Assembly: GCA_964355335.1 (NCBI GenBank) | Contig: CAYHDB010000001.1 | Coordinates: 23,387-87,386 of the forward strand | Direction of reading: 5' to 3' | Length of the DNA: 64,000 bases | Origin: an uncultured Candidatus Saccharibacteria bacterium | GTDB taxonomy: Bacteria; Patescibacteriota; Minisyncoccia; Phycocordibacterales; SIBU01 | Shown here: piece after piece, positions 15,871-19,365 of the stretch | Layout: the number at the start of each line of letters is the position of its first letter | Numbering within the stretch: position 1 is the first letter of the stretch | Made by a program: the position numbers and the translations under genes | Notes under the pieces: generated by a model | Told to the model about the DNA's origin: nothing | The model's database searches: none | Seen by the model: the letters and a program-made list of their open reading frames with translations, nothing else

Positions 15871-16620
15871 ATGAAAATTACAAAGCTCGGACATTGTTGT
15901 TTAATTATAGAAATAACACCCTCCATTTTCGGAAAATCTCCCTTACCAAAGGGAGCACTGCATTCTGGTGCAGGAGGGTTGTTACAACCCCCCAAGGCGG
16001 CCCCCTTTGTTAAGGGGGATAGGGAGAATAAAACTGTACGGATAATGACCGATCCCGGAGCCTGGTCTGTGTCGCAAAATGAGGAGAAGGACATTGATTT
16101 TATTTTTATCACGCACGAACATCAAGATCATTTCCATCTTGATTCACTCAAAATAGTATTGAAAAATAATCCGAAGGCAAAAGTTGTTACCAACCGCGCC
16201 GTGGGGAAGTTGCTCGATACTGAGAAGATTCCACATGAACTTTTGGAGCACGGTGGAGAGGGGGAATACGGCGGAGTGCATATAGAGGGATTTGGAGAAA
16301 ATCACGCGACTGTATATCAGGATTTTGGACAGGTGCAAAATACAGGTTATTTATTTGCCGACAGATTTTTCTACCCCGGTGATGCGTTCTATAATCCGAA
16401 TAAACCAGTCGAGATTCTCGCTCTTCCTGTCGCGGGACCGTGGGTGAAGCTTTCCGAAGCGATTGATTATGCCAAATTGCTCAAACCGAAGGTGTGTTTC
16501 CCGGTACATGACGCTTTGCTTAAGTACAATCTTCCGGCACGGCTGGCTCCTCAAAAATTCCTTCCTCTCTCAGGGATAGAATTCGTAGATCTTCTAGAAG
16601 GTGTCACTAAGGCCTTTTAA
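15871..16620 (+). CDS. MBL-fold metallo-hydrolase with a hairpin-encoded insertion of about 40 aa near the N-terminus
   Basis: MKITKLGHCCLIIEI...FIFITHEHQDHF (HxHxDH). Between IEI and TVRIMTDPG, nt 15915-16040 form the hairpins ctcccttaccaaagggag and cccccttt-gttaa-ggggg. Confidence 0.7.
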   Translation: MKITKLGHCCLIIEITPSIFGKSPLPKGALHSGAGGLLQPPKAAPFVKGDRENKTVRIMTDPGAWSVSQNEEKDIDFIFITHEHQDHFHLDSLKIVLKNNPKAKVVTNRAVGKLLDTEKIPHELLEHGGEGEYGGVHIEGFGENHATVYQDFGQVQNTGYLFADRFFYPGDAFYNPNKPVEILALPVAGPWVKLSEAIDYAKLLKPKVCFPVHDALLKYNLPARLAPQKFLPLSGIEFVDLLEGVTKAF

Positions 16621-16689
16621 AAGGTACTCCCTAATCAGGAGTGCTCTTTACCCAAGTAAAGTTATCCCCATTGACATTTTTTAGCTATT

Positions 16690-16725
16690 TGCTACTCTTT
16701 ACTTGGGTAAAGAGTAGCAAATACG
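16690..16725. promoter_or_regulatory. Perfect palindrome of about 34 bp upstream of the trpR-like gene (candidate operator)
   Basis: tttgctactctttac-ttgg-gtaaagagtagcaaa. A half-copy ctctttacccaagtaaag lies at 16646-16663. Confidence 0.55.
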
Positions 16726-16742
16726 AATTACCCTGTATCGCG

Positions 16743-17060
16743 ATGAAAAAAACGAAAAAATCGAAGAAAACAAAGGCGAAATGGAGCATAAGCGATAGTA
16801 ACGCCTCGGCTCTTTCCCGGGCACTGCTCTCTATGAAGAGTGCTGAGGAGATGGGTATGTTTTTGCGTGATTTGCTGACAGAATCGGAAATTATCGAGTT
16901 TTCAAAGCGTTTTTATACCGCTCGGGCAATCGCTGAGAGCGTTCATTATGCAGGTATTGCGGAGGCTACGGGCTTAAGCTCTCGTACTATCGCTCGAGTA
17001 AAGCATTGGTACAATAATGGTAAGGGGGGTTACAAATTGGCCATTAAACGACAAAAATAG
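16743..17060 (+). CDS. TrpR-like / YerC-YecD family DNA-binding protein
   Basis: LLTESEIIEFSKRFYTARAI...HYAGIAEATGLSSRTIARVKHWYNNGKGGYK matches the YerC/TrpR family C-terminal HTH. Confidence 0.75.
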   Translation: MKKTKKSKKTKAKWSISDSNASALSRALLSMKSAEEMGMFLRDLLTESEIIEFSKRFYTARAIAESVHYAGIAEATGLSSRTIARVKHWYNNGKGGYKLAIKRQK

Positions 17061-17097
17061 AGTATTTTTAAATTGAATAGGAATGGATTGTATTTTT

Positions 17098-17136
17098 TTA
17101 CCCGCTACTCTTTACCCAAGTAAAGAGTAGCGGGTA
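17098..17136. promoter_or_regulatory. Second perfect palindrome, reverse-complement core of the first, between the trpR-like gene and the LOG-family gene
   Basis: cccgctactctttac-ccaa-gtaaagagtagcggg. Confidence 0.55.
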
Positions 17137-17155
17137 CAGAGAATATATAAATGTT

Positions 17156-17734
17156 ATGAAATCAAAAATTAAAAAGCGAATTAGAAACAAAAGATTGCAG
17201 ATTGGAGTCATTGGGCCTGCCGGAAGAGAGGAATATTTGGCAGGCGGTGGTGCATCTGCAGAAACATTAAAGCTTGCTCGAGAGGTCGGGCGTCTTTTGG
17301 CGGAGCAAGGGGTCACCGTGGTAACTGGAGGCAAAAGTGGAATTATGGAGTCGGCAGCGGAAGGTGCTAAAAGTGTCGGAGGAATGACTGTAGGTGTCGT
17401 AAGTGGTGGAAATCGTTTTGTCGCCAATCCATTTATTGACATTGAGATACCAACAGGTGTGTCCGCGTCTGGGTATGACGAGTTTCTTCTTGTGCTTATG
17501 TGTGATGCTTTGATTGTGCTCGGTGGGGGCGCAGGAACTTTGGAGGAGATAACCATCGCATACCGCAATAAAAAACCAATGGTCGTGCTTCAAGGTGTTC
17601 CGGGTTGGGGTAGGAAACTCCTGTCTGAAAGATATCTGGATTCCAGGAAAACAGTTAAATTAGAAAAAGCGTCTACTGCCCCTGAGGCTGTTTCGAAAGT
17701 GATTTCTTTGGCGACAGCGATATTGGTAAAATAA
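17156..17734 (+). CDS. LOG-family protein (TIGR00725-like Rossmann-fold nucleotide-binding / phosphoribohydrolase-like)
   Basis: IGVIGPAG...VVTGGKSGIMESAAEGA...LGGGAGTLEEITIA (GGxxGxMEA and PGGxGTxEE motifs). Confidence 0.7.
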   Translation: MKSKIKKRIRNKRLQIGVIGPAGREEYLAGGGASAETLKLAREVGRLLAEQGVTVVTGGKSGIMESAAEGAKSVGGMTVGVVSGGNRFVANPFIDIEIPTGVSASGYDEFLLVLMCDALIVLGGGAGTLEEITIAYRNKKPMVVLQGVPGWGRKLLSERYLDSRKTVKLEKASTAPEAVSKVISLATAILVK

Positions 17735-17940
17735 AACAATGAAAAAAAATAAATCAAAAGTTAGGGTTTTAAATAACGAAAATCACCATAACCAGCTCTT
17801 GTGGAAAGAGATTGGTTGTGTTTGAGACGGCTCAATTTTTTATACACACATTCAATCCCTTTCCAAAAGGGATTTTTCTTTTTGGGAAATGAAATCGATT
17901 GGTTCATTGACAAAAAAATAACAAACGAAAGGGTGCACAT

Positions 17941-18765
17941 ATGTACACAAATAAATTGGAGATCTCATCACGAGACAATCTGATTATATTAGATGATAGA
18001 AGCGGGGAAGTTCTTCCTTCAGACGAATTTCTGGTAGGCAAGATGAAGGAGGCTGGCTGTGCCAAAGTGTTGCACATACTTATGCAAATGAGATTGGAAA
18101 ATGATTTATACAAAATCATACAGGAAAAGTTTTTTGACCCTAGTTCAGACAAGGTTGGCCTGTGTGTTTTTCCCGGCAGAAGTGCCCATAAAATTCGTGA
18201 GAGAAACGAGGGTCAGAACAATCATTCCGAAAGTGTATTTGGTCGCAGTACTTCTGTGTCTGTCCATGCCTCTCGTCGGTTCGATGCCTTTGGTAATGCC
18301 ATAGTTACTGTCGGAGAGGTCATGCGTGGACGGATTGTTTGTCCAGAAGTAAGGATAATAATCGTGGTTGATGATGTGATTAGCTCAGGGGCAACGTGTA
18401 GGAAGCTGTGTGATCGTAACCGTTATAAGTTTCCGCGCGCTGAGTGGTATGCATGCGGATGCGTATCAAGGCAAGAAAAGATTCCTGGTTATAAAGAAGT
18501 TATTACGCCACTTCTTGTCCCGCTCGATACCCTAGGATTAAAGGTGCCCATCAATTCTCTCAGTACACTTATTGACGGGGAAGATGTTGTGGGCGGTGAA
18601 TATGCGAGAAAACATTGTTTAACCCCGGACATCTTTGTGAAGGCGCTTGCTTCCGTAAGGTCAAGGGATGAATTTTCTCAAAAATCCCAAAGACAGTCGC
18701 AGGCAAACGTGACTTCACTGCTTAATTCCTTGAGTAAAGCAACTATAAACCTATCGCCTTTTTAG
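17941..18765 (+). CDS. Phosphoribosyltransferase (PRTase type I) domain protein with N- and C-terminal regions of unknown function
   Basis: PRPP-binding motif VRIIIVVDDVISSGAT at about residue 148 of 274. No ComF zinc finger. Confidence 0.55.
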   Translation: MYTNKLEISSRDNLIILDDRSGEVLPSDEFLVGKMKEAGCAKVLHILMQMRLENDLYKIIQEKFFDPSSDKVGLCVFPGRSAHKIRERNEGQNNHSESVFGRSTSVSVHASRRFDAFGNAIVTVGEVMRGRIVCPEVRIIIVVDDVISSGATCRKLCDRNRYKFPRAEWYACGCVSRQEKIPGYKEVITPLLVPLDTLGLKVPINSLSTLIDGEDVVGGEYARKHCLTPDIFVKALASVRSRDEFSQKSQRQSQANVTSLLNSLSKATINLSPF

Positions 18766-18849: not shown

Positions 18850-18878
18850 GTTTGCAGGCCCAAGATAAAAATCTTGGG
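18850..18878. terminator. convergent terminator hairpin
   Basis: cccaagat-aaaa-atcttgggcttttt. Confidence 0.6.
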
Positions 18879-18882
18879 CTTT

Positions 18883-19365
18883 TTATATTCTATATTCCTG
18901 TATTCTAGGTTTGATTACGTCCAGTGCCCGTCTTAATCCTGAGATTTGTCGTCGTAATGTTTCTACTTGGTTGTTGGTTTTTTTCCAACTGTCGGTATCA
19001 TTTAACCTTTGAAAGCGTGAGACCGACACCTGATGCTGTGACTCTGCTTCCGCAAGCATTTTTTCAGCGCCCGTCATTTCTTGAGAAAGTCGACAAAATT
19101 CCTTTATGTCCGCGATTGCTTCAATGGCAACGCTGACAGGCTTTTCAATGGCAAATGATCCAAAATCTGTTGTGATGTAGCCGTCGAGTGTATTAGCGTC
19201 AAATCTAGGCCTTTCGGGTATTGTCCACGTATCAATCTTGTGACTCGCGAATACCTGACCGTAGATATTTTTATAATTAAACTCAATGTGGACTTGCGGT
19301 TGAAGGGTTTCTTTTTCAGTGTCTTGTTCCGTCAACACTTTCTCATTGCCTAGATTTTCACTCAT
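18883..19365 (-). CDS. hypothetical protein
   Basis: A 160-aa ORF downstream of the ABC efflux operon. No motifs recognised. Confidence 0.4.
   Translation of the reverse strand: MSENLGNEKVLTEQDTEKETLQPQVHIEFNYKNIYGQVFASHKIDTWTIPERPRFDANTLDGYITTDFGSFAIEKPVSVAIEAIADIKEFCRLSQEMTGAEKMLAEAESQHQVSVSRFQRLNDTDSWKKTNNQVETLRRQISGLRRALDVIKPRIQEYRI

Follow-up and report, generated by a model that had tools for sequence, protein, structure and literature searches.

Gene order and features of the locus

The locus lies in a 64-kb window, by which we mean the whole stretch of DNA analysed here. It holds three genes, hisR-like, TIGR00725/LOG-like and PRTase-like, together with palindromes and a leader region. 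The features are as follows.

16646-16661, unstranded: predicted operator A, short HisR-type box CTTTAC-CCAA-GTAAAG, its centre 51 bp upstream of the centre of operator B
16671-16698, + strand: putative regulator promoter, TTGACA (16671-16676), 16-nt spacer, TACTCT (16693-16698)
16686-16723, unstranded: predicted operator B, presumed auto-operator, perfect 38-bp palindrome TATTTGCTACTCTTTAC-TTGG-GTAAAGAGTAGCAAATA with the HisR-type core ctCTTTAcTTGGgTAAAGag
16743-17060, + strand: hisR-like gene, YerC/YecD-type TrpR-family repressor, 105 aa (TIGR02531, PF01371)
17099-17136, unstranded: predicted operator C, perfect 38-bp palindrome TACCCGCTACTCTTTAC-CCAA-GTAAAGAGTAGCGGGTA, 20 nt upstream of the LOG-like start codon
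17156-17734, + strand: TIGR00725 / SLOG-cluster-4 (LOG-like) protein, 192 aa (TIGR00725, PF18306)
17739-17825, + strand: leader ORF MKKNKSKVRVLNNENHHNQLLWKEIGCV plus stop, 28 codons, starting 4 nt past the LOG-like stop codon
17796-17871, + strand: antiterminator, 5' arm 17802-17821 pairing with 3' arm 17846-17865, outer extension 17796-17800 / 17867-17871 (folding and covariation)
17854-17884, + strand: intrinsic terminator AATCCCTTT-CCA-AAAGGGATT plus T-run, stem 17854-17874, conserved in the alignment
17941-18765, + strand: type I PRTase-fold protein of a distinct Patescibacteria family, 274 aa (profile, AlphaFold2 model, fold search)
18856-18891, + strand: terminator-like hairpin with T-run at the operon end (terminator scan)

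The order hisR-like, TIGR00725/LOG-like, leader, PRTase-like is found again in about 30 of 36 Patescibacteria species. The three-gene neighbourhood, whose conservation the sequence-only reading had named as a check, is thus kept across related genomes. The circuit extends from Gracilibacteria through Paceibacteria and Saccharibacteria-labelled genomes. The context of the locus is housekeeping and its phylum-wide inheritance looks vertical. In relatives, metabolic genes replace the genes of the module or are fused with them: HAD and nucleoside phosphorylase genes take the place of the LOG-like gene in 6 loci, and HAD::PRT fusions (PRTase::HAD) occur alongside a uridine-phosphorylase-like enzyme. 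Across loci, the target genes are LOG-like, PRTase-like, uridine-phosphorylase-like, HAD, GNAT and AspA-like. The sole his-related neighbour is hisS, which adjoins the module in 2 loci; within the 64-kb window neither hisS nor prs was found.

In the literature on TIGR00725, LDcluster4, HisR or attenuators in Patescibacteria we found no description of the module. A metagenome scan with the unspecific pattern TGGTTGTGN{15,45}CCCCTTC yielded at least 120 stretches. Among the stretches listed, none fitted the leader profile or coded for the three proteins found here, and 2 carried unlinked LOG-like matches only.

A HisR-type regulator and its predicted operators

The 105-aa regulator reaches 55.5 bits against TIGR02531 YerC/YecD (cut-off 42.2), which confirms its earlier assignment as TrpR/YerC-like, and 50.9 bits against PF01371 (cut-off 27, E 1.7e-13). 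Its best PDB matches, 3frw and 3g1c, are the E. eligens HisR of PMC9413887. By these family matches the regulator is of the histidine-repressor type, a point missed in the sequence-only reading. Its N-terminal tail is Lys-rich and a C-terminal His-run extension is absent. Many relatives have a His run at the end of their repressor ORF, where it feeds another attenuator; we found no description in the literature of a repressor's own coding tail used as attenuator leader.

Some observations count against histidine specificity. Two acidic helix-2 residues that are conserved among Firmicutes HisR differ (FLRD and RFYTA here versus FFED and RFEVA). Moreover, HisR-family paralogues can switch specificity, as seen for hisR2 adjoining a tyrosine decarboxylase gene (PMC9413887). 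Genes for histidine biosynthesis or transport are absent from the operon, which counts against the histidine model, and genes for histidine biosynthesis and/or uptake were not found as targets.

The palindromes reported to bracket the trpR-like gene are real: two perfect 38-bp palindromes and a shorter copy flank it. In both B and C, two arms of 17 nt with perfect complementarity surround a 4-nt centre. The long arms are thus perfect as described, while their coordinates had been off by 2-4 nt and their supposed identity holds for the inner 12 nt only (GCTACTCTTTAC), the centre of C being inverted (CCAA). What had been taken for a half-site at 16646 is in fact the full short palindrome A. In the relative L004 the two upstream boxes are also 51 bp apart.

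Within the 64-kb window GCTACTCTTTAC occurs without mismatch only at these sites, and CTTTA-N6-TAAAG is present in exactly three copies, all at this locus. The HisR operator is a 20-bp palindrome, cacTTTA-N6-TAAAgtg, which is located close to regulated promoters and in many cases ahead of hisR itself (PMC9413887). All three boxes in the window read ctCTTTA-N6-TAAAGag, those upstream of the regulator gene in related loci tACTTTA-N6-TAAAGTa. The core of the window boxes matches the HisR consensus cacTTTAnnnnnnTAAAgtg (PMC9413887), and the boxes keep their position in other genomes. Based on consensus match and kept position, the palindromes very probably serve the adjacent TrpR-family protein as operators, as had been proposed. 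Operator C sits where many relatives have their first His attenuator.

The putative regulator promoter has a matching layout in L004 (TTGACA-16-TACACT) and L001 (TTGACT-17-TAACTT). Its hexamers are weak and a consensus promoter scan did not call a promoter for the regulator gene. The inferred -10 hexamer falls inside the left arm of operator B.

The 17-nt perfect arms reach far past a 20-bp operator, which counts against a model of operators only. They could instead be mainly nucleic-acid hairpins: stem-loops stabilising or processing the regulator mRNA, cruciforms in the DNA, or inverted repeats bounding an invertible or mobile segment with the regulator gene inside. Such a role would account for arms much longer than an operator needs, for outer arms that differ among sites and genomes while complementarity stays perfect, for predicted RNA folds of -22.8 and -29 kcal/mol, and for B and C being inverted copies of each other, asymmetric centre included. 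However, the long arms are confined to the clade of the window (window, L001/L006, L004), and elsewhere ordinary 18-20-bp boxes with the same core are found. Moreover, B overlaps the inferred -10 hexamer and hence would not be transcribed in full, a T-run is absent after both hairpins, no recombinase or transposase lies nearby, and the box core matches a validated operator consensus. We therefore hold the hairpin explanation to be very unlikely. An invertible or mobile segment bounded by a 50-nt inverted repeat was rejected as well: the similarity outside the palindromes is AT-rich and weak, and a recombinase is absent nearby.

The LOG-like and PRTase-like proteins

The LOG-like protein passes TIGR00725 marginally (108.1 bits, cut-off 106.9), in agreement with the proposed LOG-family (TIGR00725) identity, and PF18306 at 123.8 bits (cut-off 26.3, E 5.8e-36). 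Its translation contains the motifs GGKSGIMESA and GGGAGTLEE. PDB relatives are 1rcu, 6y01, 2iz5 and LOG enzymes, and orthologues across Patescibacteria are 55-67% identical. TIGR00725 is a family long classed as 'hypothetical equivalog'. We know of no member with a demonstrated enzymatic activity; characterised ones bind molybdenum cofactor. Based on the family motifs and the HAD/phosphorylase replacement in 6 loci, the LOG-like protein is presumed to be a nucleoside-5'-monophosphate N-glycosidase.

The PRTase-like protein had been described as a PRPP-binding loop embedded in unknown N- and C-terminal regions. Its AlphaFold2 model (pLDDT 91) instead shows a complete type I PRTase fold. The PRPP-binding loop IIIVVDDVISSGAT is present, with the type I pattern of four hydrophobic and two acidic residues followed by an xxTGxT-like stretch. 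Across 55 sequences D144, V146, I147, S148, G150 and T152 do not vary. The motifs FPGxGA, AKRxWxPG, VVDDVISSGxT and KVPINSLSTL are conserved. Pfam matches are weak (PF15609 at E 0.016; PF00156 at 12.9 bits versus 26.3), an NCBIfam match is absent, and a sequence search of the PDB gave nothing significant. The fold is equidistant from known PRTases, with ~10% identity to all structural matches, and the protein could be assigned to none of the characterised subfamilies (APRT, HGPRT, UPRT, OPRT, PyrR, ComF). Of 1.84 billion representatives the family profile finds only 287, and ordinary PRTases lie outside its reach. From the narrow profile and the equidistant fold, the protein is not simply a standard adenine, hypoxanthine or orotate PRTase whose start was miscalled. 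As judged from profile and model, the protein defines a new, sharply bounded PRTase family. PyrR is among its Foldseek matches; a PyrR-like RNA-binding role is not favoured because the switch carries a translated His leader (see below).

A conflict module had also been suggested. This would be a toxin-antitoxin system like ShosTA/PsyrTA, in which the PRTase acts as toxin, the SLOG/DprA-like protein as antitoxin, and the regulator as their dedicated repressor. At the superfamily level the domain pairing is equal, as ShosT carries a PRTase domain and ShosA is DprA-like (PMC12961424). In addition, PADLOC shows a weak and partial match between the LOG-like protein and PsyrA (27.6 bits, residues 33-83, 51 residues). 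Against this, the PADLOC models for ShosT/PsyrT have no match to the PRTase-like protein, and ShosT is missing from the fold matches. The housekeeping context, the vertical-looking inheritance and the metabolic genes that act as substitutes or fusion partners argue in the same direction. The suggestion is thus unsupported and we regard it as scarcely credible. The competence pair ComFC/DprA was rejected too: DprA models score under their cut-offs and a ComF match is absent.

A leader-peptide attenuator and the proposed histidine circuit

The spacer ahead of the PRTase gene (17735-17940), described before as ~200 nt of non-coding sequence, actually carries a leader ORF and an attenuator. The leader has tandem His codons CAC CAT at 17784-17789 and stops with TGA at 17823-17825. 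Homologous leaders contain 1-4 His in all 26 species, at least 2 of them consecutive in 22. HH is present in 22/26 leaders of the second attenuator and 13/16 of the first, as compared to a chance level of ~0.8%. The window leader with only two His codons and the four of 26 species with a single or split His count against the histidine reading. Asn, Asp and Tyr codons flank the His runs, which raises queuosine sensing as an aside.

Just downstream of the His codons two helices compete. The antiterminator has a minimum free energy of -29.9 kcal/mol (z -4.5), and 17806-17810 is an alternative pairing partner for segment 1 (17796-17800). In the alignment 17 antiterminator pairs are 92.5% paired, with 72 double-change cells versus 24 in shuffles. 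The 5' arm of the terminator is nested in the 3' arm of the antiterminator; here 92.6% of cells are paired, with 30 double-change cells versus 9.8 in shuffles. Slid controls for helix pairing reach 43-77%. Taken together, the two helices are mutually exclusive and covary across 26 species, a short ORF with consecutive His codons lies just upstream of the switch, and the terminator precedes the regulated gene. Judged from leader and covariation, the spacer is a classical ribosome-mediated His-codon leader-peptide attenuator. In an Rfam scan of the whole window tRNAs alone pass the gathering threshold, and a permissive scan of 16600-18000 found nothing beyond chance matches of the hairpins to miRNAs and CRISPR repeats. 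The attenuator hence lies outside the catalogued families.

The HisR-type regulator combined with the His-codon attenuator ties the module to histidine supply. The view of genes under a dedicated repressor is incomplete in that it missed the attenuator. We consider it likely that the locus is a histidine-limitation-induced operon in which two control layers, HisR-type repressor and leader attenuator, govern a LOG-like and PRTase module. The model builds on observed sequence elements, conservation, covariation and gene linkage, from which we infer what the ligand is, in which direction regulation works and which reactions the enzymes carry out.

In the first layer, a repressor dimer would bind the CTTTA-N6-TAAAG boxes. 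Two of them, A and B, overlap the putative regulator promoter, and the third, C, immediately precedes the LOG-like gene. As in characterised HisR, repression would occur when the co-repressor is abundant. This is presumably histidine, to which the His-codon attenuators in the same operon lend indirect support. In the second layer, ribosomes ending the LOG-like gene would re-initiate 4 nt downstream on the 28-codon leader. With plentiful His-tRNA they would proceed to the UGA stop at 17823, where they occlude segment 2; the terminator (17854-17884) could then form and the PRTase gene would remain untranscribed. Stalling at the two His codons (17784-17789) would allow segment 2 to pair with segment 3, so that the antiterminator forms and read-through into the PRTase gene follows.

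As to the chemistry, the LOG-like enzyme may convert a nucleoside 5'-monophosphate to base and ribose-5-phosphate, and the PRTase an acceptor and PRPP to a ribotide, resulting in a putative conversion module for nucleotides, bases and ribose phosphates. Both enzymes acting on the same base would be a futile cycle, which counts against the model. Patescibacteria are generally viewed as amino-acid auxotrophs, and this counts against a clear logic for histidine control.

The same regulatory architecture could respond to another signal. The TrpR-family protein would then sense a nucleobase, nucleoside or other metabolite, and the module would serve plain nucleotide salvage: the PRTase would be a divergent uracil/purine PRTase, with the LOG-like enzyme, or the HAD and phosphorylase pair, supplying base and ribose phosphate. 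We regard this as rather unlikely, as nothing but the His codons is invariant in the coding sequence of the two attenuator copies (more than 40 leaders, any reading frame), hisS is co-located twice, and the PRTase family profile misses ordinary PRTases.

Going beyond the histidine-limitation model, we tentatively suggest that TIGR00725/LOG-like with the new PRTase (or PRTase::HAD with the uridine-phosphorylase-like enzyme) might be an unrecognised Patescibacteria route answering or relieving histidine shortage. It might be a histidine- or imidazole-linked ribotide path, or a starvation remodelling of nucleotide and PRPP pools that replaces the stringent response, in many lineages under a repressor whose tail is the attenuator leader.

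Patescibacteria represent a large portion of bacterial diversity with tiny genomes and almost uncharacterised regulation. The circuit appears as a textbook-grade repressor plus leader-peptide attenuator in this group, readable from sequence alone. If the histidine model is true, presumed auxotrophs monitor histidine, and probably the charging of His-tRNA, and answer with two enzymes. The module would provide a first physiological context for TIGR00725, and the substrates of this protein and of the new PRTase family become directly testable. The 3' coding end of a regulator serving as attenuator leader would be a new variation on the attenuation theme.

Compared to the HisR (B. subtilis YerC) regulons of Firmicutes, Actinobacteria and Synergistetes (PMC9413887), whose study did not cover Patescibacteria, the locus shares the small TrpR-family YerC/YecD protein, the 20-bp palindromic operator with TTTA-N6-TAAA core, and a site ahead of the regulator's own gene, which implies autoregulation. 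In contrast, targets there are his biosynthesis and histidine transport, while here they are TIGR00725/LOG-like and a novel PRTase. The operators, 20 bp there, are extended to 38-bp perfect palindromes in the clade of the window, and many Patescibacteria relatives differ by the His-run tail of the repressor ORF serving as attenuator leader.

With LOG and PpnN nucleosidases and TIGR00725 relatives (T. maritima 1rcu; Moco carrier proteins 2iz5 and 6y01) the LOG-like protein shares the Rossmann-like SLOG fold and the motifs GGxxGxM and GGGxGTxxE. Like PpnN, it would switch on upon amino-acid starvation, in this case by the proposed transcriptional induction through repressor and attenuator, whereas PpnN is controlled allosterically via ppGpp. 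ShosTA / PsyrTA and ComFC/DprA likewise partner a PRTase-fold protein with a SLOG-superfamily protein. For ShosTA / PsyrTA closeness in sequence and fold ends at the superfamily and the gene order is opposite; the module differs further by its single-domain PRTase, housekeeping locus, vertical conservation, metabolic control and the metabolic genes substituting or fusing.

The attenuator resembles those of E. coli hisL (his operon) and trpL in its short ORF with tandem codons of one amino acid, its four RNA segments with alternative 1:2, 2:3 and 3:4 helices, and its intrinsic terminator with U-run. Unlike the E. coli leaders, it is operon-internal and either translationally coupled to the upstream gene or led by the regulator ORF; hisL has seven His codons, Patescibacteria leaders two to four. 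Moreover, unlike in his and trp, none of the controlled genes is known to take part in synthesis of the amino acid that is sensed. As with trpL and TrpR, a TrpR-family repressor and attenuation are joined on one operon, such that the locus would follow the build of the E. coli trp paradigm with histidine as the key.

Predicted operator sites and the regulator gene

The palindromes and the three genes named in the sequence-only reading were confirmed, with slightly corrected coordinates for the palindromic sites (A, B and C):

16646-16661, site A, CTTTAC-CCAA-GTAAAG
16686-16723, site B, perfect arms of 17 nt, centre TTGG
16743-17060, + strand, hisR-like gene (TrpR family), 105 aa; TIGR02531 YerC/YecD, 55.5 bits vs. 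a cut-off of 42.2
17099-17136, site C, perfect arms of 17 nt, centre CCAA
17156-17734, + strand, LOG-like gene, 192 aa; TIGR00725, 108.1 bits vs. a cut-off of 106.9; PF18306, E 5.8e-36
17941-18765, + strand, PRTase-like gene, 274 aa; weak PRTase matches only

The nearest solved structures to the regulator are the HisR-type proteins 3frw and 3g1c. The locus is surrounded by genes for a MacB-type ABC transporter, FolD, SecE-NusG-L11 and a dCTP deaminase. The MBL-fold gene at 15871-16620 encodes 249 aa vs. 213 aa for the syntenic gene of L001, a related locus in another genome. Its ~36 extra residues (SIFGKSPLPKGALHSGAGGLLQPPKAAPFVKGD, 15920-16030) correspond to G+C-rich DNA with several short hairpins, which looks like an in-frame insertion. 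Between the PRTase-like and transporter genes, a 160-aa ORF is located on the - strand (18883-19365). It has no significant match in Pfam, NCBIfam or PADLOC and is absent at that position from the syntenic loci L001 and L004.

The inner 12 nt per arm (GCTACTCTTTAC) are common to B and C; the outer 5 nt differ. Within the 64-kb window mismatch-free copies of this 12-mer are confined to these sites, and the core CTTTA-N6-TAAAG occurs exactly three times, all at this locus. B. subtilis YerC has been identified as the histidine repressor HisR, a member of the TrpR family. Its binding was validated in vitro and is stimulated by histidine, and autoregulation applies to about half of the hisR genes (PMC9413887). 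The sites of the window read ctCTTTA-N6-TAAAGag. Among related loci, gathered via the PRTase-like protein, nearly all carry boxes tACTTTA-N6-TAAAGTa directly upstream of the TrpR-like gene, usually two of them 18 bp apart. The HisR-type core and the same boxes elsewhere support the earlier proposal that the TrpR-like protein uses the palindromes as operators, and we regard them as predicted operators of HisR type. A putative regulator promoter (TTGACA-16 nt-TACTCT) would have its -10 hexamer within the left arm of site B. It was not called by a consensus scan of the window; the promoter-like layout is also present in L004 and L001.

Arms extending 9-13 nt beyond the TTTA/TAAA core are seen only in the clade of the window (window, L001/L006 and L004). 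A purely structural role of the long palindromes is unlikely because core motif and position are those of HisR operators, but the extended arms may have an additional hairpin function. Perfect symmetry over 32-40 bp is likewise restricted to this clade (window 16686-16723 and 17099-17136; L001 5212-5243; L004 4694-4733). The outer arms vary between sites and genomes, yet are complementary in every case. Symmetry beyond the expected footprint of the protein suggests selection for it or a mechanism maintaining it.

HisR-type boxes were also observed just past the terminator of the PRTase-like gene (L001 6855-6880; L005 6683-6717; L010 6561-6588; L014 6703-6730; L017 6718-6758; L029 6541-6575; L011 6653-6687); the window has none after this gene. 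They often form a tandem pair; some are perfectly palindromic over up to 28 bp. Downstream, most loci show convergent genes only (Pterin_4a, EamA, AspRS); in L011 the boxes precede a uridine-phosphorylase-like gene. Such boxes might be left over from a lost downstream gene, or act as looping partners or roadblocks.

Predicted histidine-codon attenuators

The ~200 nt before the PRTase-like gene had been read as non-coding, which does not hold: the spacer contains a leader ORF and a His attenuator.

17739-17825, leader ORF, MKKNKSKVRVLNNENHHNQLLWKEIGCV and stop; starts 4 nt past the LOG-like stop codon
17802-17821 paired with 17846-17865, antiterminator (segments 2:3)
17823-17825, leader stop codon, just 3' of segment 2
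17854-17874 and T-run, terminator (segments 3:4)

In the aligned LOG-to-PRTase spacers from the window and from L001 and L004, some stretches are more conserved than the flanking proteins, and in each spacer a short ORF contains two His codons side by side. An equivalent leader was found in 26 of 26 species examined; in other loci its start overlaps or abuts the LOG-like stop codon. Two to four consecutive His are present in 22 of the 26 leaders, single or split His in four. The distance from His run to stop is 9-12 codons in most leaders and 5 in a minority. HH would occur by chance in ~0.8% of 25-residue peptides of leader composition. The nucleotides 3' of the His codons are conserved with a reading frame differing by lineage (WKEIGCV, ARRGWL, IERG). 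It is thus the His codons and the RNA that are under selection, and not the peptide.

RNAalifold predicts a segment 2:3 helix of 17 bp, 12 pairs of which show compensatory changes. It has 92.5% of cells paired vs. 80% in shuffles (slid controls 43-56%) and both-side changes in 72 cells vs. 24. The alternative fold, a small 1:2 hairpin plus the 3:4 terminator, reaches 92.6% (slid controls 54-77%) with 30 double-change cells vs. 9.8. The whole leader of the window folds at -29.9 kcal/mol (z -4.5). Judged from this geometry, classical attenuation would apply: a ribosome stalling at the His codons (17784-17789) would leave segment 2 available for pairing and allow read-through, and one reaching the leader stop codon would cover segment 2 and cause termination. 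An effector other than histidine is conceivable for the repressor, though the His codons point to histidine independently.

In 42 attenuator leaders (window 17739-17825 and L001-L041) Asn/Asp/Tyr occupy 25 of 84 positions flanking the His run vs. a background of 12.5% (nominal p 2e-5, relatedness ignored). Together with His these have NAY codons, read by queuosine-modified tRNAs. This excess may come from AT-rich codon usage or form an additional sensing feature.

Covariance model R1, built from the 26 leaders, recovers every LOG-to-PRTase junction and, in ~17 loci, gives weaker matches between the TrpR-like gene and the gene after it. There the TrpR-like ORF bears a C-terminal extension that enters the switch with a His run at its end (e.g. 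tails KRLNHHHGLSLYGKRLC, NRLAHHHNSSSFGKGLRSAS and KRISHHHKSSSF, each before the stop). A Gracilibacteria locus shows the same arrangement (SKLSSHHHSPVE), and in loci where the regulator gene is missing a separate leader ORF takes its place, e.g. MRKDLNKIYHHHTSFIFRKEVLLW and stop. The regulator of the window stops right after the conserved domain (AIKRQK and stop), and operator C occupies the equivalent place; in this clade the first attenuator appears to have been replaced by an operator.

Gene content and possible function

The order TrpR-like, LOG-like, PRTase-like on one strand is conserved in 26 of 36 species-level genomes of our scan. A TrpR-like gene was not detected in four further loci, which carry just the LOG-like and PRTase-like pair. 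All the genomes are Patescibacteria, although names on some records are mislabelled. The LOG-like gene was not found in six loci. Five of these carry a PNP_UDP_1 gene (uridine-phosphorylase-like; TIGR01718 194 bits, under cut-off) between regulator and PRTase gene, and two of the six also a HAD-IA hydrolase gene. In L011 the PNP_UDP_1 gene follows the PRTase gene. Genes for a GNAT and an aspartoacylase-like deacylase are inserted in three to four loci, prs lies upstream of the module in L035, and in L037 the PRTase gene is followed by hisS. In Gracilibacteria locus L162 (1280-2599) the operon order is TrpR-like (His-run tail), PNP_UDP_1, HAD::PRT, hisS.

A miscalled start in an ordinary PRTase does not explain the PRTase-like protein. 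Its family has an invariant PRPP loop, and R112, N160, W169, the NSLSTL motif and Y221 are likewise invariant. Instead of a loop embedded in unrecognised sequence the protein represents a distinct PRTase family, probably active, whose profile matched no more than 287 representatives out of 1.84 billion proteins. All ten long members tested are fusions, either HAD::PRT (P0142, P0148, P0155, P0181, P0191, P0197) or PRT::HAD (P0184, P0194, P0202, P0203). Such recurrent fusion points to dephosphorylation of the PRTase product.

Support for the regulatory interpretation is good; the enzymology is inferred. The LOG-like enzyme would convert NMP to base and ribose-5-phosphate, HAD phosphatase plus nucleoside phosphorylase NMP to base and ribose-1-phosphate. 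The two would be chemically equivalent ways of stripping a ribotide. A ShosTA/PsyrTA-like conflict system shares the pairing at superfamily level and nothing more (PMC12961424). This reading is highly improbable; it is opposed by gene context, by the substitutions and fusions, and by the mode of control. The module might serve a ribotide route linked to histidine or imidazole, or it might remodel nucleotide and PRPP pools upon starvation. The latter would be comparable to PpnN, which is activated by ppGpp.

Taken together, the sequence data describe a predicted phylum-wide, doubly histidine-sensing operon, a finding more interesting than as first stated. It represents a new arrangement of known regulatory principles, with two enzymes under its control.
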